Under the pieces are notes generated by a model. That model searched no databases, was not told the DNA's origin, and saw nothing but the letters and a program-made list of their open reading frames with translations. A program made the translations under genes and the position numbers. From a virus (Duplodnaviria; Heunggongvirae; Uroviricota; Caudoviricetes), in the IMG/VR virus record IMGVR_UViG_2547132273_000013: DNA of 20,662 nucleotides, one strand, 5' to 3'. Position 1 is the stretch's first letter; each line of letters starts with the position of its first letter. Positions 1,058 through 19,106 of this stretch are shown here, in pieces.

Positions 1058-2130
1058 TCAATTGTCCCCGGTGTTAACAGTTCCGTATTCTCCGAACGCT
1101 GGATCTCTGTCGGGAAACGCACTTCAAAATCATCCAGACCGGTAACACCTGCCACCGCACGGATAATACGGGAGGGAGCAAGTGCGCCGCCCGGCGTCAC
1201 CTCATTAAAAAACATGGTATTAATGGCGTGGGTAATAGCCTGTTTCAGTTCGGCTGTCTTCGGTGATATATAAATCCGTGGATTTACCGGCTTTGCCTTT
1301 GGCGCAAATACAGTGACATTTACACCGTCAGGCTGTCCGACAATCAGACCGGTGATCGGGTCAGTATGACCGGCGATATAATCCGCCACGCGTTCCACGT
1401 CTGCCGGTTGTGGAAAAATATTGCTCCGGTTATCCATAACAAACGTCACCCCGACTGTGCCACCGCCTTTCCATGTCGGAAAACACCAGGCACGGGTAAC
1501 GCCGCTGACTTCACGTGCCCAGCGAACGTAATCAAACTGATTACCGCCGAACGGAGGGTACTGGACACGATATTCCAGCCGTGACAGCAGCTCCGCTGCA
1601 CTCTCAATATCAGCTCCACCGGAAAACCCTTTTACAGTGATGGCATCGGAAACAACACAGGCAACCGGAGTGATCAACGTTAAAAGGGTATTCTCACCGG
1701 TATTTCCTGCTTCACCGGCAGCCAGTGCGGTAACGGTAATTTCCGTCGTTCCTGCACGGTCAATCACAATGGCATCAGCCAGGCTGTAAACCACACCATC
1801 AGCACGCTGCCAGCGTGTACCGGCAGGAATGGTGGTCGCTGCCGATGTGGTGACAGTCAGCGGGCCGCTGGCGGCTGTCGCCTGTTTGCGGCGCACGCCC
1901 CAGAACCGGCAGTGCTCCAGCAACTCATCTTCATCTGCTGTCGACGGGATAATCTGCCGTCCAACCCATGAAATATGCTCGTGACAACCGGCAGCAAGGC
2001 CCGCCTGAGCATAAGCAATGGCGCTCAGCGTTTTTTCACGGGCCTGAGGCCAGCTACCCGGCAGGCGCTGTTCAATATTCTGTTCTGTACGGGCAATCAG
2101 CGATGATAATGTCGGTGGTGAATAAGCCAT
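1048..2130 (-). CDS. W: Baseplate J-like protein (Mu gp47 / W; P2 gpJ, T4 gp6 class)
   Basis: 360-aa ORF with synteny and size matching baseplate J-family proteins; directly abuts the gp46-like gene. Confidence 0.85.
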   Translation of the reverse strand: MAYSPPTLSSLIARTEQNIEQRLPGSWPQAREKTLSAIAYAQAGLAAGCHEHISWVGRQIIPSTADEDELLEHCRFWGVRRKQATAASGPLTVTTSAATTIPAGTRWQRADGVVYSLADAIVIDRAGTTEITVTALAAGEAGNTGENTLLTLITPVACVVSDAITVKGFSGGADIESAAELLSRLEYRVQYPPFGGNQFDYVRWAREVSGVTRAWCFPTWKGGGTVGVTFVMDNRSNIFPQPADVERVADYIAGHTDPITGLIVGQPDGVNVTVFAPKAKPVNPRIYISPKTAELKQAITHAINTMFFNEVTPGGALAPSRIIRAVAGVTGLDDFEVRFPTEIQRSENTELLTPGTIEWL

Positions 2131-5769: not shown

Positions 5770-7881
5770 TTACCAGCCTGTAATGTAGTTATCGCCCGCG
5801 TAAATATTCAGCCCCATACCATCCTCGGTGACGCGGGAACTGGTCAGACGTAATCCTTCGCCAAGCTCGACGCGCAGCGATGCTTCCGCATTCACTTTTT
5901 GCTCCTGCGGTTCCCTTTCCGGGGCCGTCCATTTCTGATACAGGTCAGTCACAAAACCGCCCAGATATTCCCCGGCGACACTGCCCAGCGTGGCACCGGC
6001 AACCGTGCCCAGCGGTCCGGCAAGGCTGCCAACGGCACCGCCGAGCCAGGCGCCGGCAGTGCTGCCAATTGCTCCGGCTTTTTCATGAGTTGATGCCTGT
6101 TCATCCATCAGAACGGGAGCAAGCTGGAGTGCCCCCATCACCGGACCGCCAAGACGTGACAGTGCACGACCCGCGCCTTTCCCCATCCAGCCCAGCGCCC
6201 CGGCCCCTTTTGTCACAACCCGACCAATGGCACTGTCTGCGAGTTTGTTTCCGATACCGGAAAACAACCCGCCAACGGTACGACCGGCACCAGCCAGCTT
6301 TCCGATTGTTCCCGTAACCAGTTGTCCGGCAGCACTGCCTGCAAGCCTGCTCAACAGACCGGATTTGCCGGGTAAAGGTAACGATGCGTGCCGTGTGGCA
6401 CCCGGCGCACCGGGAGATGGCAATGCCAGTACCGGGGACGGTGCAGGTAATGCCAGTGGTTTCGGTGCTGGTAATGCGGGAACAGTGCGTGGGGCCGGAA
6501 GTGCCAGCGGTTGTAGCCCGGACAGCAATAACGGCTGGCGGGGCAATGCTGCCGGTGTTTTACCTCCGTATCGGGAAAATCCGCCATATCCACCGAACCC
6601 GTTGGGCCAGTTAGTCACAAAAACGCGCTGAACTGTCAGTTCCCGCAGTAGTTCTGTAGCAGGTAGCGCATCCGGTGCCGGAATGCCTGTCTGTCCATGT
6701 TTGCGTTTTCGCATCCAGCGCCACATACGACGCCCGGTTTTGAACGGATAGCTGGCAACCTGCCATGATGGCTTCGCCACGGCCCAGCCCGCCCTCAGTG
6801 CTTTATTGGCAAGCCAGACAGACACCAGAACAGCAGCCAGTTTTTTCAGGCTGACAATATTCTGGTCAACCCATGCCAGCGCATCTTTACCCGGTTTCAG
6901 CCAGCGCCATAACTCCTGTGCCGCAGCTTTCAGGGTTCTGAATGTGGTCAGGAATTTCTGACCAATTTCATCAGCCCGTTTATCAAGCTCCCCGGATTTA
7001 TCCGCCGCATCGTGCCAGTTAAGCACCCGGCGCATCTCATTCTTGATTTCTTCAAAAGGGCCGCTGTTCATCACCCTGACGGCAAACTCGTTCCAGTTAG
7101 CCTCCATCTGTGCCGTCATCCCTGACCACGAGTTCATGGCTGCGGCCTGTGCGCCTTTTGATTGTTCTGACAGCGCCCTGAATACCATCAGGATCGACTT
7201 CAGCCCCAGTTTGCCTTTTTCCCCTTGCTTTCGGATTTCCTTAACGTCTTTACCCAGCGCATCAGCCAGTGTCTGGTAAACGTTGATACCGTAGCCGGTC
7301 AGCAGGTTGGCATCTGCCGCTGTGATTTGCTGGCGGGCGAACATCTGTTTCAGTTGCAGCGAGGCCCCCTGCGCAGCAGATAAATCCCAACCGTGTAATG
7401 CCCCCTGATCCTGCAACATGGTGATGAACTGCTTTGTCTGTTCATCCGTCATGCCAAAGCCTTTCGACGAGCGAATTTCATCCAGAACGCCGCCCAGCCC
7501 CCACGTGGTATCCTTCGCGTTCTGCTTCGCCCATGCCATCATTGCCTGCGCTCTGGCCTTATCGCCGTGATACAGCGAGTTCATGGCTATAATCTGCTGC
7601 TCACGTTGAGCTGCTGCGCTGATAAACAGTTTATTGGCGGTGTAACCCGCCCCGGCAACACCCAGCGCCCCGGCTGACAGCATTCGGAATGTACGGGTTG
7701 AGAGAGAACCCATTTTGTCGATGGCACCAGACACGCGCACCACTTCCATACGCAGGGCACGCAGGGAACTTTGCCCACTACGGGACAGGGCGTTTATCTG
7801 GTTCGAATACTGGCGGGAACGCCGGGAAAGATTGCCATTAAGGTCAATAATGACTGACGCTTTTAAGCGTTTCCCGGTCAT
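5770..7881 (-). CDS. Y: Tail tape measure protein (Mu gp42 / Y-like)
   Basis: 703-aa ORF, the largest in the tail module. Alpha-helical-type N-terminal half, internal proline-rich degenerate repeats (LPAP...), glycine-zipper-rich C-terminal region. AGGAAA precedes the ATG at 7879-7881. Confidence 0.9.
6371..6519 (-). repeat. Degenerate tandem repeat of about 24-27 bp inside the tape measure gene, encoding L-P-A-P-type repeats
   Basis: Plus strand shows repeated ggtaatgccagt-like units (ggcaatgccagtaccgg / ggtaatgccagtggttt / ggtaatgcgggaac / ggaagtgccagcgg). Protein reads [39 protein letters not shown]. Confidence 0.7.
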
Positions 7882-11953: not shown

Positions 11954-12871
11954 TTACAGGTAGTCAGCGACAACCAGTTGCAGCTTACCCTTCATCTCGT
12001 TGGAGACGGTGGTATTGCCATCCGCGAACAGCTCACGGTTAAGCAGTTGCTCTGCGGATTTTTCCAGTCCGACCGGTACAACGATATGCGTCGGCTTCAG
12101 GCCCAGCTTCTTACCGCCATCACCTTCAAAAGAACGCATCAGTTGCCAGCCCTTCCAGAGGTTATCCAGCGTCAGATCGCCTTTTACCGCGACAGCCATC
12201 TGCCAGAAGCCGTAACCGGCAGCACGGCGGGCGCTGGCACCAAACAGGAACTCGTTATCCATAAAAACGTGGTCGTCATCGATACGGGTACGTGCGACCA
12301 GTTCCGGTTTGCGGCGCTCCTGGAAAATCAGCGGTTTGACTGCGCGGGAGCAGTCCAGCAGATAGAATGGCAGACCGCTGAAGCTGTCCTGCTCAACGAT
12401 GTTGGAGGTATTAACCGCGCTGCCCGTGCCGTCCACATTCGGATATACCGGATGCTCTTTGTCGAAGAAGTTCTGACCGTCATAGCAGGGCTGGGTAAAG
12501 CCATCTTTCAGAAGTTTAAAAATCAGCTCATCCGGCTGAACTGCCGCAGAACGGCCCATCTCCTGAAAAATCGGCGCATAAATACCCAGATTGTCATCCT
12601 CGAAGTCATCACGGGAAATACCCACGGTGCCTTCAAACGTTTTATTAGCGATGGAGTAGCCATGCGCTTCCATTTGCTGAATGGTTCGCTTACCCACCCA
12701 TTCTTTCAGGGTCGGGAATTTACCCAGCCAGCCATAGGTATTGCTGCGGGTGGAGGAGTTCACCACCATTGCAATTTTGCTGTACTGCGACGGGGCGTCT
12801 TCAAGACCGCCCTGAAAATCCTTACGCCAGGAGGTCATCAGGGCTTTAATGGATGCCGGGGTGACAATCAT
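11954..12871 (-). CDS. T: Major head (capsid) protein, Mu T-like
   Basis: 305-aa ORF immediately downstream of the protease/scaffold gene (ATGA overlap); size and position as Mu gp34; followed by a hairpin. Confidence 0.85.
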   Translation of the reverse strand: MIVTPASIKALMTSWRKDFQGGLEDAPSQYSKIAMVVNSSTRSNTYGWLGKFPTLKEWVGKRTIQQMEAHGYSIANKTFEGTVGISRDDFEDDNLGIYAPIFQEMGRSAAVQPDELIFKLLKDGFTQPCYDGQNFFDKEHPVYPNVDGTGSAVNTSNIVEQDSFSGLPFYLLDCSRAVKPLIFQERRKPELVARTRIDDDHVFMDNEFLFGASARRAAGYGFWQMAVAVKGDLTLDNLWKGWQLMRSFEGDGGKKLGLKPTHIVVPVGLEKSAEQLLNRELFADGNTTVSNEMKGKLQLVVADYL

Positions 12872-13419
12872 TTTTCTTGTTCCTGTTTCATTTTCAGATA
12901 CTCAGCCTCAGTAATGCCGAGCGCCTTCACTGCTGCTTTTTCATCAGCAGACAGCACCGCCACCGCCGTTTTTTCCTGCGACGGGTTTTGTACCGTTGTG
13001 GTCTGCATGGCAGATAACGCAGCGATGGGCTGTTTTTTCTCAAGCTGTGCCGACAGTGCCGCCACGCCAATCTGACCACCAAGCTGTTCCAGGTAAGTGC
13101 GTTCGCTTTTGAAAATGCGGCCTTCCTGTTCCGCCTTGTCCAGAACGGCGCTCAGGCTGGCGGTGGCACTTTGCGCGGTGGCCTGAGCCAGCTCATCGAG
13201 CACGGCGTTGTAGCTTTCCACCGGGACGTATTTCGTCAGGTCAACGGCGGCTTTCTGTGCCTTTTCCAGTTCGGCGGATAACGACGCCACTTTTCCGGCA
13301 TCTGTTTCGAGCGCATCAAGCGCACTCAGGGCCGCGCTGGCCTGTTCATCAGTGATGTCTGCATTTTCGGGGACAGTTACCCCAAGACGCGCAAGTAGCT
13401 TGCGCAGCGTTTCATTCAT
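12868..13419 (-). CDS. Putative nested in-frame scaffold protein (Mu Z-like) from an internal start within the I-like gene
   Basis: Internal in-frame ATG at 13417-13419 (MNETLRKLLARLG...) is preceded by CAGGAG, a Shine-Dalgarno-like sequence, at about 7-8 nt. Mu is known to express scaffold Z from an internal start in I. Confidence 0.4.
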   Translation of the reverse strand: MNETLRKLLARLGVTVPENADITDEQASAALSALDALETDAGKVASLSAELEKAQKAAVDLTKYVPVESYNAVLDELAQATAQSATASLSAVLDKAEQEGRIFKSERTYLEQLGGQIGVAALSAQLEKKQPIAALSAMQTTTVQNPSQEKTAVAVLSADEKAAVKALGITEAEYLKMKQEQEK

Positions 13420-13968
13420 GGGTTTGTTCTCCTGTTGAAGGATGTCGGGAAGGTCTGCCGCCAGTGCGGTCAGCTTTTTCATGCCGGTGGCACCGGGATC
13501 ATTGGTCAGCGCAGCAAGGCGGATTTGCAGTACCGCACCGGTGGCGGTGTCATACGGAAAAACCGCAGAGAGATAACCAAATTCGCCGTCATCGATGCGC
13601 TGCTGGGCTGCCGCTGTCCAGCGTGGGTGGATAAATAACCCTTCACCTTCACGCCACTGCATTTCATCGGCGTTAAACCAGCCAGCCGCGACCAGTTGTT
13701 CCGGGGGTAATCCTTTGTCCTTACGCAGCTGGTTATGCTCGTAATCAATCAGCACGTCCTGGTTAAGTGCGCGGATACCTTCAATCAGGCGTCCGGCAAT
13801 TTCTCCGTCGATGAACCAGCCCTGACCAGTTGTTACATCAAACGGGCGACCGTCACGGGCACTGAAATAACCGGCAGGCAATAGCTGGCACCAGCCGTCA
13901 TCGTCAATGGACAGCGCACCCAGCGCAGCAATACCAATCGCGTGTTTTTTCATGTCCGGCCTGCTCAT
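12868..13968 (-). CDS. I: Prohead protease / scaffold protein, Mu I-like
   Basis: 366-aa ORF; N-terminal half protease-like, C-terminal half Ala/Glu/Gln-rich coiled-coil-like as expected for scaffold; upstream of the major head gene. The first ATG has a weak ribosome-binding site, so the true start may be the second ATG (MKKHAIG...). Confidence 0.85.
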   Translation of the reverse strand: MSRPDMKKHAIGIAALGALSIDDDGWCQLLPAGYFSARDGRPFDVTTGQGWFIDGEIAGRLIEGIRALNQDVLIDYEHNQLRKDKGLPPEQLVAAGWFNADEMQWREGEGLFIHPRWTAAAQQRIDDGEFGYLSAVFPYDTATGAVLQIRLAALTNDPGATGMKKLTALAADLPDILQQENKPMNETLRKLLARLGVTVPENADITDEQASAALSALDALETDAGKVASLSAELEKAQKAAVDLTKYVPVESYNAVLDELAQATAQSATASLSAVLDKAEQEGRIFKSERTYLEQLGGQIGVAALSAQLEKKQPIAALSAMQTTTVQNPSQEKTAVAVLSADEKAAVKALGITEAEYLKMKQEQEK

Positions 13969-14154
13969 CGTGATTTGTGAGTAGCCAGTGTGCGGGGAAC
14001 GGGAGAAAAGGCGGGGTTATCCAGTTTTAGTAATTCTGTAGGAGAAAGATAAAGGGGAAGGGAAATGCATGACGCCACCCCCTTCAAAACCCCTTCAAAA
14101 ACGCCACAGAACCTTCAAAAATTCTTTATCGCGTGATTTTATCTCTGTATCTGG
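13969..14154 (-). promoter_or_regulatory. Non-coding gap between the G-like and I-like genes: candidate late promoter (P_I equivalent) and possible strong-gyrase-site-like central element
   Basis: 186 bp without an ORF on either strand inside an otherwise tightly coupled operon. Contains three CCTTCAAAA repeats (14081-14089, 14092-14100, 14112-14120), two ACGCCAC copies and a C-rich tract (GGATAACCCCGCC on the transcribed strand). In Mu the G-I gap holds the C-dependent P_I promoter and the central strong gyrase site. Confidence 0.4.
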
Positions 14155-14625
14155 TTATTGCGTCAGAGCGGCGCTTACGCGTTTTCTGATGGCATCATAA
14201 ATTTCCTGCTCACCGCTCTTATCCAGCCCCATATAAGGACGTGCAGGAACACCTGCCGGACCGGGGGGCATATCAGGCTTACCGCCCCACTGATGAATAG
14301 CAGCGTAAACTTTTGGTGAGCCAATCAGGGCATAATCCGGGCCGTAAGCGGAAGTGATGCTGCGGGCCAGATCGCCATGCAGGGTAAGAATGCTACCCGG
14401 AACAAAACCATGCTCCTGACGCCATACCAGCCACGGGTCACTCCATGACTCCCAGCTCTGGCCCGTGTCCGGGTCTGCCTGCCGTTCAAAAGCCTGTTCA
14501 GAAGACGACAGCAATGCCGCAGCCATCACACGTGGCACATATCCGTCATGCGTTACCGTTGCCAGATCATCAAGAGCAAGCCGGATACGTCGCACATCCA
14601 CGGCAACGTTCATATCAAGACTCAC
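14155..14625 (-). CDS. G: Virion morphogenesis protein, Mu G-like
   Basis: 156-aa ORF; ATGA overlap with the upstream F-like gene; position matches Mu gp31. Confidence 0.75.
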   Translation of the reverse strand: MSLDMNVAVDVRRIRLALDDLATVTHDGYVPRVMAAALLSSSEQAFERQADPDTGQSWESWSDPWLVWRQEHGFVPGSILTLHGDLARSITSAYGPDYALIGSPKVYAAIHQWGGKPDMPPGPAGVPARPYMGLDKSGEQEIYDAIRKRVSAALTQ

Positions 14626-15977
14626 TTATTCACCTCCACATGCCCCTCCAGTACGTCAATCATCCCGTCAGCAATCGCGGCTTCAAGCGACTGTGCAGAT
14701 ACGCGGCTGATACTGACCAGCACATCCGCCCGGTCATTCTGCCTGCCGACTGTCTGTGATGTTCTGACCACAATTTGGGCCGTGCCGTCACGGGTTGCCA
14801 CAACGTACAGCAGCTGGTGATTTTTTCTGTCCCACAATACCGCCTGTGGTTCTGCCATCAGAGACGGCAGACGCTGTAAATCCTCTGCTTTCAGGGCAGC
14901 ATCAGCAGCGGTAGCCAGACTTTCTCCATTCATCACCAGTAAACGGGCTGGCAGATTCCCGGTGCGCTGATGTACGGCTTCAGCTACCGATTCTGTCATA
15001 AAACCTAGTGCCCGGATCTCACGCCCGGCGTGACGTGATTTCACCAGACGATTAAGCCACAGGGAAAAAGCAAGCTGGCGCTCCCGGCTGTTATTCAGCG
15101 TCTGTACAACCTGCTCACGCAGCTGCGCGTCACGAACTTCCACCAGTTTTCGAATCAGCGCCTGATCAGTACCGAATGCCGCCGAACCGGGGTTATATGA
15201 CCAGCCAACGTCCGGCGTCATTTTTACCCGACCGTTGTCAAACGTGGTTGACGATGTGCGGAAAATCTCTCCTGTGCTTTCATCCGTGCCGGCCTCCACT
15301 TCGCGGGTATCCATGAATGAAGCACCATAGCTGACCTGTAATCCCAGTTCTTTCATTCGGGCTGCAGACAGCGCACGAACGCGGCAGCGACAGCTCCAGC
15401 CATTGGGCGGGTAATGTGTCTGCCAGAAAATATCGTCATACCGGAAAATCATATTATGCAGCCGGGCATGCTCCGGGCGCGTTCTGCTGTCCATAACGGC
15501 GACATACTGCCAGTACGGATACAGGTCTGCGGTATTCATCATCTGTGCATAACGTCCCGCCCCGTACGCTGTACGGGTATTGACGTTATAAATGGTTGCC
15601 AGACGACGCGGACTGCCCAGTTCGATTTCCTTCGCGTTTCCCTCTGCATCCACGATGATTTGTTTTCCCCACCATCCGAGCTTTTGCAACCGGGGAGCCA
15701 GTGTGCGGGTAAATTCCTCACGGGTGATACCCTCACTGACAGCCCGCTCCACTTCCTCACGGATTGTGGTCAGGACATCCATCCGGGCAGCTTTGGCAAC
15801 GGTAAAGGCACGGGCGTGCGCGTCTGCCAGTTGTTCGTACCAGTTCCAGGTGATGTTGTAGCCTTTGGCACGGAAATACGCGACAGCCTCCTTTGGCGGG
15901 AGGCGTGCGGCATACGCCAGATCAATGGTCTGCTGCGGCATCCAGACGCCCCCATATATCGGCAACAAAAATGGCAC
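14622..15977 (-). CDS. F: Head morphogenesis protein, Mu F-like (MuF / SPP1 gp7 family)
   Basis: 451-aa ORF immediately downstream of the portal gene, the conserved position of MuF-family proteins. The longest ORF overlaps the portal end by 56 nt, so the true start may be the internal Met at MPQQTIDL. Confidence 0.8.
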   Translation of the reverse strand: MPFLLPIYGGVWMPQQTIDLAYAARLPPKEAVAYFRAKGYNITWNWYEQLADAHARAFTVAKAARMDVLTTIREEVERAVSEGITREEFTRTLAPRLQKLGWWGKQIIVDAEGNAKEIELGSPRRLATIYNVNTRTAYGAGRYAQMMNTADLYPYWQYVAVMDSRTRPEHARLHNMIFRYDDIFWQTHYPPNGWSCRCRVRALSAARMKELGLQVSYGASFMDTREVEAGTDESTGEIFRTSSTTFDNGRVKMTPDVGWSYNPGSAAFGTDQALIRKLVEVRDAQLREQVVQTLNNSRERQLAFSLWLNRLVKSRHAGREIRALGFMTESVAEAVHQRTGNLPARLLVMNGESLATAADAALKAEDLQRLPSLMAEPQAVLWDRKNHQLLYVVATRDGTAQIVVRTSQTVGRQNDRADVLVSISRVSAQSLEAAIADGMIDVLEGHVEVNK

Positions 15978-17460: not shown

Positions 17461-19106
17461 TACCAGCCCCCTCGTTCAAACTGGTGATAATCATCGTTAT
17501 CAACATCATCACCACGGTGGCGTGGTGGCAGCGCCTGTATGCTGTCCTCGTCGATAACAAAACCATTCATATAAGACGCCCTGACAGCCATACAGAGCGC
17601 CACGGCAAAGTCGCCATGTCGTCGGCCTTTACCGCCTTCATCTTTTGTGCGCCCCTTATCAATCTGCGGAATACCTTTGTCCACCCTGATGTGGAGCAGG
17701 TCATCAAGTGTGGTCTGGTGCCGGGCAATCGTGATGTTCTGCGCTTCAAACTCGCCTTTCAGTTTTGGCATCCACTCCTGATACCAGGATGCGGTCAGAT
17801 TCACACAGTCGATCATCTCCGGGCCATAAATCAGACGGGCGGCTTCTGCCAGATAACCGCCGTTACCGGTGGCATCAAATGCAGCGCCGGTAAAACGGGG
17901 TAAACGGGACAGAATGAATAAAAGGATTTGTCGCTGCTGGTCATAGGTCACATTACGCAGCTCCACGCGGAAACATTCGCGTTTGCGTAAGTCTGGAGTG
18001 ATGGCAAGCGGCACAAACACCGTCAGGTCGCCACGGCGTGCAAAGTCTTCGCCCAGTACGTGTTTATTGAGCGGTGACAGCGCATCGAGCAACGGGAGCA
18101 GCTCCTGTTCACACCAGTCCTGAACGATACCGTGGCGCATCTGCGGTGTCAGCGATTCAAAATCGTCCGGAGCTTCAAAACGCAGAACCGGGATATCCCG
18201 CGCGGGTGTCATGGCAGCTTCAATCAGGACACGGGACAGGTAAGCGCCACCGGATTTTTTGGGAATACAGCCGTATTCCTCGTCGGCGCTCTCTTTGTTC
18301 GGCGCGTTCCGGTACAGGCCATCACGCCAGGCTTTCTCCGCTTCCGGCGACCACGGCTGATTCGTGACATAACAGATACGCCGGTACAGCCCGTCAGCGA
18401 TGGCATCGTCCAGCGTGATACGGTGAACGCTGTAATCCTTGCGCCCCTCACGCGCATCCTGAATGTACTGGTTAAACAGGTTATCGACGCCGTTATGTGT
18501 CGATATGATCCGCACGCGTGCACCCCACATGGTGAGCGCAAAGGCCGCTTTCAGGAGTTCATCCAGGGCTTCATGAAATGCCGCTTCATCAATCACCACA
18601 TCCCCCTGTAAACCACGCAGGTTAGACGGGCGGCTTGAAAGCGCCTGCACCTTAAATCCACTATTCGGAAAGCGGATCATGTAGGTGAGGATTTCTTCTT
18701 TTTTGTCGCTGTCCCAGAAGGTCTGCTCCCAGACGTCAGCCTTTGCCAGCTGGTTAAAGGCGCGGGCAAACAGGGCACAGGCGGCGATGTATTCCAGCGC
18801 CATTTCCTGACGGGAACCCACATAAAAGACGTTGCGACCACCACGGCGACGCGGCTTTGCGGCCGTCATGACATTGCGGCCCGCTTCGGCCCATGTCAGA
18901 CCGGTACGACGGGATTTTTCAGCAATGCAAATCTGGTTTTCATCCTCAAACCAGCCGCGCTGATAGCCTAGGAAAACCGGTTCATTGCGGGGCTGCGCTT
19001 CCCCGATATCGGTCACGATATTCACGCCAAGCAGTTCGGCCTCCTTGCGCAGGTCGATTTTGCGGGGTGCATGAAGGGCTTTAAGTTTGCTTTCTTTGGT
19101 GCTCAC
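17460..19106 (-). CDS. Terminase large subunit (Mu gp28-like)
   Basis: 548-aa ORF, the largest head-module protein upstream of the portal. The only in-frame start after an upstream TGA is GTG at 19104-19106, and it lacks an obvious Shine-Dalgarno sequence. Confidence 0.85.
   Translation of the reverse strand: MSTKESKLKALHAPRKIDLRKEAELLGVNIVTDIGEAQPRNEPVFLGYQRGWFEDENQICIAEKSRRTGLTWAEAGRNVMTAAKPRRRGGRNVFYVGSRQEMALEYIAACALFARAFNQLAKADVWEQTFWDSDKKEEILTYMIRFPNSGFKVQALSSRPSNLRGLQGDVVIDEAAFHEALDELLKAAFALTMWGARVRIISTHNGVDNLFNQYIQDAREGRKDYSVHRITLDDAIADGLYRRICYVTNQPWSPEAEKAWRDGLYRNAPNKESADEEYGCIPKKSGGAYLSRVLIEAAMTPARDIPVLRFEAPDDFESLTPQMRHGIVQDWCEQELLPLLDALSPLNKHVLGEDFARRGDLTVFVPLAITPDLRKRECFRVELRNVTYDQQRQILLFILSRLPRFTGAAFDATGNGGYLAEAARLIYGPEMIDCVNLTASWYQEWMPKLKGEFEAQNITIARHQTTLDDLLHIRVDKGIPQIDKGRTKDEGGKGRRHGDFAVALCMAVRASYMNGFVIDEDSIQALPPRHRGDDVDNDDYHQFERGGW

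Follow-up and report, generated by a model that had tools for sequence, protein, structure and literature searches.

The 20,662-nt stretch of viral DNA analysed here (IMG/VR record IMGVR_UViG_2547132273_000013, hereafter the window) carries three closely spaced copies of a short A/T-tract repeat between two late genes of a Mu-like phage, G and I, and to judge by sequence comparison these repeats are probably phased units, minor grooves facing inward, in the right arm of a central strong gyrase site (SGS) like that of Mu. The SGS of phage Mu itself is the subject of Pato, Howe & Higgins 1990 and Oram et al. 2006, as cited in PMC10052514, PMC6463007, PMC6379681 and PMC11626157, and the element in the window is a sequence variant of this known kind of site, not a new kind of element. 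The observations behind this assignment are the position of the repeats, their alignment with Mu, their phase relative to an independently fixed centre, their polarity, their predicted curvature and their conservation across the family. All long open reading frames (ORFs) of the window lie on the minus strand according to the ORF list, and the arm is described below in the order of this gene strand.

On the plus strand, CCTTCAAAA occurs at 14081-14089, 14092-14100 and 14112-14120, with start-to-start steps of 11 and 20 bp, and both direct reading and a pattern search return the positions and steps given in a preliminary description of this DNA. Shuffling leads one to expect 0.21 copies of CCTTCAAAA in the window, which contains 4, a number reached by none of 100 shuffles, and 3 of the 4 are packed into 40 bp. 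The fourth copy (12123-12131, plus strand) stands alone inside the major head gene T (11954-12871, minus strand) and is probably a chance occurrence. A repeat search lengthens the unit to 11 nt, with CCCCTTCAAAA found twice (100%) alongside AACCTTCAAAA (82%), and the gene-strand reading is TTTTTGAAGG, a 10-nt spacer, TTTTTGAAGGGG and TTTTGAAGGGGG. The array had also been placed 35-75 nt downstream of the stop codon of G, which holds on the minus strand, where the stop is 14155-14157. The motif ACGCCAC, which had been described as interleaved with the repeats, does occur at 14072 and 14101, but the window has 7 copies against 4.2 expected, and since 13 of 100 shuffles contain as many, the motif is not significant on its own. 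The copy at 14101-14107 is part of the spacer that relatives keep (CTGTGGCGT), and the copy at 14072-14078 has already mutated (to GTAGCGT) in two 99%-identical prophages, those of Escherichia coli TUM9757 and of locus L033, in which all three repeat units are intact; the interleaving is therefore incidental.

The repeats occupy the slot in which Mu has its SGS. Positions 13400-14700 are 87% identical to Mu, D108 and SfMu, with several Yersinia Mu-like phages similarly matched, and the gene order on the minus strand is F-G-[site]-I-T, with the repeats between G and I. The G product has 85% amino-acid identity to Mu G (measured on L033, which is of the same type) and the I product more than 95% to Mu I. 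The slot is intergenic and lies directly upstream of the head protease gene, as in Mu. The Mu records place three features in the G-I gap: first the gyrase cut, at 17879^17880 and thus 20 nt past the stop of G, then a terminator called by TransTermHP, and last the late promoter P_I. An alignment of the window with Mu, D108, SfMu, YpM_5 and PhiR68_1 is ungapped all the way from the stop of G to the end of the SGS core and right arm, and the core ATAAAATCA is invariant across all of them, with differences among the flanking core bases (ACGCG versus AGCCG). In the same alignment, the columns of the T-tract and the following AA are invariant in all three units and the intervening bases vary, and the units sit exactly on the Mu sequences TTTTTTAAAAC, TTTTTAAACC and TATTTAACGG. 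In line with the earlier suggestion that the array belongs to the DNA-wrapping arm of a gyrase site, the units would thus take the place of the AT-rich elements of Mu, starting about 16 bp beyond the position homologous to the Mu cut.

Much is known about how these elements are used in Mu, where the left arm of the SGS is dispensable (PMC10052514, PMC6463007), the gate segment extends from -25 to +25, and the right arm is essential, with DNase I protection over +26 to +85 and with phased bending signals in the 40 nt nearest the gate segment, which are required (PMC6463007). The right arm of Mu has also been reported as highly deformable and the left arm as stiff. To bring the window into this register we used the 133-bp Mu SGS fragment (PMC6379681 supplement), which corresponds to Mu 17812-17944 and to window 14070-14202. 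The 4-bp stagger at Mu 17876-17879 (AATC) then maps to window 14138-14135, with its centre, 14136.5, as position 0, and this register from the mapped cut of Mu agrees with the centre of the Topo-Seq motif considered below. On this scale the T-runs of the repeats are centred at +17.5, +37.5 and +49, a distance of 31.5 bp or 3 turns of 10.5 bp. The units lie within the range of about +15 to +65 in which Mu has its phased signals, in the same columns as the units of Mu. Counted in gene-strand order, units 2 and 3 are inside the footprinted right arm (+26 to +85 in the coordinates of PMC6463007) and unit 1 is at its edge.

Gyrase sites across the E. coli genome share a 130-bp motif in which the G+C content of the arms alternates every 10.75 bp (Sutormin et al. 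2019, PMC6379681), and we compared the window with it using the consensus string as a crude proxy for the position matrix. In the right arm of this string, A/T blocks fall at +17.5-20.5, +29.5 (one base), +37.5-39.5, +47.5-51.5 and +59.5-62.5, and the window units are in phase with these blocks, with the G+C-rich spacer in the place of the weak second turn at +29.5. Going outward, the consensus unit is CCTTTAAGGGGG and its counterpart in the window is TTTTGAAGGGG, the two sharing the polarity of a T-run followed by a G-run. In register, 19-20 of 47 positions of the window arm are identical to the consensus arm, which equals the value for the validated Mu arm and compares with a null of 12.1 +/- 2.9; the identity drops to 2-12 when the arm is shifted by +/-4-5 bp.

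A central position and a predicted bend complete the picture. A prophage of E. coli TUM9757 (locus L011), inserted in yeaE, is 99% identical to the window here, and its limits, set by Mu end sequences at 1437 and 37892 of L011, give a length of 36,456 bp. Measured from the repressor end, the predicted centre of cleavage comes after 17,714 bp, 48.6% of the way along the prophage, as against 48.7% in Mu; the window itself is partial. Curvature was calculated with a wedge model, which as a sanity check gave 39.7 degrees for phased A6 tracts and 8.0 for random sequence. The predicted maximum of the window, 34.8 degrees per 30 bp, lies at 14091, about 5 standard deviations above the mean (9.1, standard deviation 5.0), and in the complete TUM9757 prophage, too, predicted curvature peaks at the array, so that the intrinsic curvature first proposed from the phasing of the A-tracts is borne out by the model. 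The arm of Mu itself reaches 12.7 degrees and is not predicted to be statically curved. Strong static curvature is predicted here, unlike in Mu, because unbroken A-tracts and G-runs replace the TTTAAA elements.

Conservation of the array among Mu-like phages

Arrays of this kind are widespread in the family. We anchored a survey on the protease protein, which gave 80 Mu-type loci (L168-L247) with protease identities of 43-98%, and 40 of the 67 distinct upstream regions contain at least 3 TT[AG]AA units on the gene strand at helical spacing, compared with a background of 0.0175 per 260 nt. Between the end of these arrays and the start of the protease gene there are 117-225 bp (mostly 117-183 bp), and the protease start itself lies near the middle of the 30-40 kb contigs (median about 0.52, with contig limits that are predictions). 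The steps are [20,11] in 20 of 32 distinct arrays and [10,10,11] in another 8, and since both sum to 31, a 31-bp span is common to 28 of the 32. The family consensus of the unit is TTTAAACG, and equivalents of the spacer are found as CTGTGGCG and CTACGGCG in the arrays of group 2 (described below), L046 and L238. It follows from the survey that the 20+11 layout of the window is typical of the family and that TTTTGAAGG is one variant of the unit. Related pairs of units are present in distant Mu-like phages (L025, L031 and L026, the last with its pair in the gap from G to the protease gene). In prophages of the O157:H7 (Sp18-like) group, the same slot is occupied by phased TTTTCTAA, TATTTAA and CTTTAAAA with steps of 11 and 10 bp (sequence of strain 7409). 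The Mu-like prophage of O157:H7 Sakai is the source of the only foreign site reported to replace the Mu SGS (PMC10052514).

The array also recurs in Mu-like lineages with unrelated flanks. Positions 14077-14121 recur at 94-98% identity in about 47 E. coli genomes (blastn against E. coli genomes) within a second group of Mu-like prophages, here called group 2, in which the order is terminase, portal, a short F, the core, protease and T, with G elsewhere and flanks that cannot be aligned with the window. The core lies at 46% of a 34,327-bp group 2 prophage and is the predicted curvature maximum of that prophage. A scan of viral contigs added a third lineage (L029, L046) with the same core, in which a Mor/C-family gene adjoins and about 30 nt separate the core from the start of the protease gene. 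The shared 45-bp island consists of GGCGTTTTTGAAGGGGTTTTGAAGGGGG and the first unit, and is visibly near-identical in L029 and L046 as well; the proteases of the three lineages that bear it are 24-31% identical. Its coordinates are 14077-14121 in the window, 3001-3046 in L007, 24895-24940 in L012, 3246-3295 in L046 and about 1975-2040 (minus strand) in L029. The island points to a portable module or to very strong selection.

Several observations weigh against the assignment to an SGS arm, or at least against its simplest form. The putative cleavage position at 14135-14138 is placed purely by homology to Mu. The A/T-G/C correlation with the consensus, itself a crude proxy, ranks the site 10th of 41,066 positions, and this after a 1-bp shift, and for A/T-versus-G/C periodicity power the arm falls within the top 1-5% of positions in the window, as against the top 0.03% for the Mu arm; these two measures lend the SGS reading weak support. 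The 45-bp core is kept in two other lineages whose flanks, the presumed gate segment included, cannot be aligned, and this conservation is tighter than generic bendability seems to need and leaves room for a sequence-specific reader. The same can be said of the near-invariant C (87%) and G (92%) in TTTAAACG, which are also tighter than bendability seems to require. In addition, some array-bearing sites of Mu-like prophages were reportedly cleaved by E. coli gyrase without supporting Mu replication (Oram & Pato 2004), so the array alone is no guarantee of full SGS function.

The near-identity of the 45 bp and the tightness of TTTAAACG are not fully explained by plain bendability, and could be due to a portable arm that was exchanged recently, to strong selection on mechanical properties, or to a reader that recognises specific bases. 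Taken furthest, this would make the 11-bp unit (mostly TTTAAACG, TTTTGAAGG here) and its 20+11 layout a portable module that is read base by base, beyond its bendability, which we consider unlikely. If this were true, then either the GyrA pinwheel reads bases more specifically than has been thought or an unknown phage or host protein binds the centre of transposable phage genomes. On the same reading, the strong static curvature of this A-tract variant might by itself pin the tip of the supercoiled loop at the centre of the genome.

A related possibility, for which we see only a slim chance, is that another protein, and not gyrase, recognises the units base-specifically along one face of the helix; it would be either a conserved Mu-family protein or a nucleoid protein that binds curved DNA, with gyrase playing a secondary part. 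Such a protein would account for an island that stays near-identical across three lineages with divergent proteases and unalignable flanks, for the nearly invariant C and G after the A/T part of TTTAAACG, and for arrays of fixed orientation and fixed total span, and the Mu domain is known to depend on IHF, Fis and HU besides the SGS (PMC3820752). However, the IHF consensus WATCAANNNNTTR (with its A/T-rich 5' flank) has no match on either strand of the whole window, which speaks against the IHF-type site raised in the preliminary description, and the 22-bp MuA end-type consensus YGTTTCAYTNNAARYRCGAAAR has no match in the window at 3 or fewer mismatches. Mu and the O157:H7 (Sp18-like) group use other unit sequences in the same phase, with SGS function demonstrated for Mu and reported for Sakai, and because these units differ in sequence the common denominator is phase and A/T-G/C alternation, not one word. 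The arrangement of an A/T unit and, half a turn later, a pyrimidine-purine step or a G-run is the bending code of the gyrase consensus and of nucleosome-type signals. We also know of no such non-gyrase protein, which counts against this explanation.

The comparative data also bear on the possibility that the repeats arose by chance or by neutral slippage and have no function. Short tandem 11-mers do arise by slippage, and arrays of TTTTGAAGGNN are found in the unrelated phage contigs L021, L036 and L044. Against this stand the excess of CCTTCAAAA over its shuffled expectation, the invariance of the units in 99%-identical relatives in which a neighbouring base has changed, and a conservation that is in phase with Mu and extends to more than half of the distinct upstream regions in the survey, far above background; chance is effectively refuted by these comparisons.

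Some of the sequences met in these searches deserve a record of their own. The contigs with 3-6 tandem copies of TTTTGAAGGNN (L021 638-700, L036 12563-12700 and L044 6569-6625) appear to have come to use this 11-mer independently. A lambda-type terminase is encoded in L021, the L036 array lies beside Toprim primase and AAA_25 helicase genes in an iteron-like setting, and L044 is a 193-kb contig. The TTTTGAAGGNN arrays of L020, L021, L036, L042 and L044 were not used, since Pfam shows unrelated contexts there (a lambda-type terminase, primase/helicase, a filamentous-phage replication protein, or nothing). A scan of 596 Gb of genome contigs with TTTTGAAGGNNTTTTGAAGG was likewise set aside, its 18 specified bases being too few and the matches listed being unrelated. 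In viral contigs L034 and L041 we read TTTTGAAGGTATTTTGAAGG followed by its inverted copy AACCTTCAAAACC, a pattern that also matched several Bartonella species (among L034, L041, L048, L075, L077, L093, L101 and L107), at the same position in L041 and in the Bartonella tribocorum contig L077, two contigs of equal length; it may be a genus-specific repeat or a prophage element. In L025, a G+C-rich Mu-like contig (1-4339), the unit pair lies between portal and F, and the F homologue is opposite in strand to terminase, portal and protease, a layout that is due to rearrangement or an assembly artefact. In the Sp18-like prophage of O157:H7 strain 7409, RefSeq annotates a 'tRNA-OTHER' at L167 2157-2237; it is flanked by the homologues of F and G and has the opposite orientation.

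Transcription signals and other features of the locus

The intergenic region must also accommodate transcription signals, and two alternative explanations of the repeats start from these. In the first, the repeats would be mainly the 5' half of an intrinsic terminator that ends the lys-to-G late transcript before P_I, with the T-tracts incidental. A transcript boundary is indeed expected here, since a separate late promoter follows; the Mu record has its TransTermHP terminator in the aligned stretch, and the group 2 prophages have a clean terminator 18 bp past the same core. Folding of the gene strand gives a 15-bp interrupted hairpin with a 5-nt bulge (14050-14097), its stem formed by CCCUUCCCCUUU and the G-runs of units 2 and 3, and UCUUUCUCC directly after it would serve as a weak U/C tail. 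However, the fold is not significant (z = -1.69 for the region, with 11 of 200 shuffles as good) and the tail is poor in U, and a terminator scan found nothing in the window or in Mu; a promoter scan of the window region found nothing either. The hairpin partner is not conserved, since group 2 and L046 differ downstream of the same core, and the hairpin of group 2 is a separate GCCGG/CCGGC pair that does not involve the repeats. Unit 1 lies outside the hairpin altogether, and what the family keeps, namely the T-tracts, their AA and the 20+11 spacing, is nothing that a stem needs. We therefore regard a terminator as an improbable explanation of the repeats; a weak overlapping terminator role, as annotated for Mu, is possible, and would leave the phased T-tracts unexplained.

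The second explanation would make the array an upstream activating element of P_I, in the form of extra sites for the activator C, or of an UP-like element or a curved stretch that assists RNA polymerase. Promoters can be stimulated by DNA curvature, and the array lies upstream of a C-dependent promoter here and upstream of the protease gene in all lineages; in L029 and L046, moreover, it is a Mor/C-family gene that adjoins, with the core ending so close to the start codon. Against this, C binds a 16-bp imperfect dyad centred at -43.5, and at Plys the region from -60 to +8 is enough for activation (PMC2582627). Sites of this Mor/C family overlap the -35 region of a promoter that has a -10 but lacks a -35 hexamer. 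The repeats are direct and not a dyad, and the stretch that aligns with the P_I feature of Mu ends, on its upstream side, at 14036, which leaves them 45-84 bp outside it; this also tells against the regulator-binding platform first suggested for them. The conserved ATAACCCC at 14013-14020, about 60 bp downstream of the repeats, is in the region where C is expected to bind. A search for further copies turned up, besides the array, one isolated copy, and because this lies inside gene T, CCTTCAAAA is not repeated at a second promoter in 20.6 kb. In group 2, a strong terminator stands between the core and the protease gene (L012 24958-24978, GAAGCCGG-TAAAT-CCGGCTTT and a T-run), and because only about 50 bp are left before the protease start, a late promoter of group 2, if there is one, must overlap this terminator. 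We consider it very improbable that the array is a promoter element. The arm of a gyrase site remains our preferred account of the repeats, and Table 1 gives the features of the locus on this basis.

Table 1. Features of the window around the repeat array; signed positions are relative to the predicted cleavage centre
Feature	Window position	Strand	Basis
Gene I (head maturation protease/scaffold)	12868..13953	-	Start aligned with the annotated ATG of Mu
Late promoter P_I region	13967..14036	-	Aligned with Mu promoter feature 17977-18043
Possible RNA hairpin, candidate leaky terminator, overlapping the arm	14050..14097	-	Strand folding; Mu terminator annotation
Predicted SGS right arm, whole, +26 to +85	14052..14111	-	Mu footprint register; predicted curvature maximum
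Repeat unit 3, TTTTGAAGG, +47.5 to +55.5, right arm	14081..14089	-	Aligns with Mu TATTTAACGG
Repeat unit 2, TTTTTGAAGG, +35.5 to +44.5, right arm	14092..14101	-	Aligns with Mu TTTTTAAACC
G+C-rich spacer TTCTGTGGCG, filling the helical turn without a strong A/T unit	14102..14111	-	Conservation in relatives
Repeat unit 1, TTTTTGAAGG, +15.5 to +24.5, boundary of gate segment and right arm	14112..14121	-	Aligns with Mu TTTTTTAAAAC
Predicted gate (G) segment, about -25 to +25, with conserved core ATAAAATCA	14112..14161	-	Ungapped alignment
Predicted site of gyrase cleavage with a 4-bp stagger (gene strand AATC)	14135..14138	-	Homology to Mu 17876-17879
Gene G (virion morphogenesis/neck protein)	14155..14625	-	TAA stop 14155-14157; ORF list, Mu annotation
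Predicted left arm of the SGS, about -65 to -26, within the 3' end of G	14162..14202	-	Register transferred from Mu

A longer ORF option for gene I starts at 13968. A small ORF across the arm was considered and rejected: the 42-aa 'gp31.5' of D108 (L003 917-1045, record GQ357916) spans the SGS right arm and P_I, and the nearest ORF of the window (14087-13965, TTG start) has an unrelated translation. Because 1-nt and 3-nt indels break the frame in the window type, gp31.5 is probably not a gene. A comparison with Rfam gave no match to any RNA family. A plain A/T-G/C agreement score against the 133-nt gyrase consensus was dropped, as it rewards G+C content and misses even the Mu SGS. The top agreement with the consensus string on both strands (z 4.4-4.6) is at 6444-6577, inside a 703-aa ORF (5770-7881) that is the tape-measure gene by position, and this signal may be meaningless, as the same proxy missed the Mu SGS.

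Proposed mechanism and comparison with known systems

If the array is the right arm of an SGS, then gyrase binding, cleavage near 14135-14138, presentation of a T segment and a role in end synapsis would all carry over from Mu, on the strength of alignment, position and physical prediction. Host DNA gyrase would place its gate segment over the core ATAAAATCA, and the DNA on the gene I side would wrap one GyrA C-terminal beta-pinwheel. Because the T-tracts (at about +17.5, +37.5 and +49) recur in steps of the 10.5-bp turn, their narrow minor grooves would face the protein, and the G-runs, half a turn away, would point outward. A pre-bent and anisotropically bendable arm of this kind would favour strong binding and offer the adjacent DNA as a T segment, and fast, processive supercoiling would follow from the two together. 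Since the site is central, the site would form the tip of the resulting loop and the two ends of the prophage its base, a geometry that could support end synapsis and rapid replicative transposition after induction. For Mu itself, wrapping, T-segment presentation, processive supercoiling and the role in end synapsis have been shown by experiment (PMC10052514, PMC6463007, PMC11626157, PMC3820752). Gyrase cleaves the Mu site with a 4-bp stagger, has an extended right-arm footprint that changes with AMPPNP, and supercoils processively (PMC10052514, PMC6463007), and the SGS is needed in cis for fast replicative transposition and synapsis of the ends (PMC10052514, PMC3820752). In the cryo-EM structure of E. 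coli gyrase on the Mu SGS, the right arm wraps one GyrA C-terminal domain (CTD) and presents the T segment, with its AT repeats toward the CTD via the minor groove and its GC repeats outward (PMC11626157).

The function of an SGS is thus known, with host gyrase organising a 36-kb phage genome as one supercoiled loop in which the ends meet, and the Mu site is a standard substrate of single-molecule and cryo-EM studies of gyrase. What is new here is a natural variant that keeps the phase and spacing of the Mu arm with A-tracts and G-runs in place of the flexible TTTAAA-type elements, and whose units come near the gyrase consensus unit derived from the whole genome, with strong pre-curvature as the prediction. 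Together with the survey and the 45-bp island, the copy in the window provides a natural set of variants with which to ask whether gyrase reads curvature, anisotropic flexibility or bases. The phased TT[AG]AA array may also offer a simple signature by which the central gyrase site can be located when further transposable phages are sequenced.

Among known systems the Mu SGS is the closest. The two sites share the G-I slot 20 nt after the G stop, the core ATAAAATCA, the late promoter that follows, the central position, and three A/T units in identical columns on the gene I side. They differ in the units, which are TTTTTGAAGG here and TTTTTTAAAAC, TTTTTAAACC and TATTTAACGG in Mu, and in their make-up, with unbroken T(A)-tracts followed by G-runs here and TTTAAA elements in Mu; function has been shown by experiment for Mu, whereas for the window it is predicted from sequence and model. 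The Sakai-type SGS, for which we used the sequence of strain 7409 and not that of Sakai, likewise lies between G and the protease gene and has three phased A/T units, but these are TTTTCTAA, TATTTAA and CTTTAAAA, the G genes share about 69% DNA identity, and that site has been tested experimentally where the site in the window is predicted.

The likeness to the Topo-Seq motif is one of geometry and of the unit itself. The A/T blocks of the arm are at equal distances from the centre (about +19, weakly +29.5, +38.5 and +49.5), and the 11-bp unit here is nearly the consensus unit CCTTTAAGGGGG. On the other hand, the motif is a degenerate statistical pattern, symmetric on both arms, whereas the site in the window, like that of Mu, has one strongly patterned arm and a gate segment far from the consensus. 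A broader parallel is with nucleosome positioning (Satchwell, Drew & Travers 1986, cited in PMC6379681 and PMC11626157), where A/T minor grooves also face inward at each turn and G/C lies outward half a turn away; the SGS arm differs in that it wraps a bacterial GyrA beta-pinwheel, with about 49 bp and a positive chiral wrap, instead of a histone octamer.

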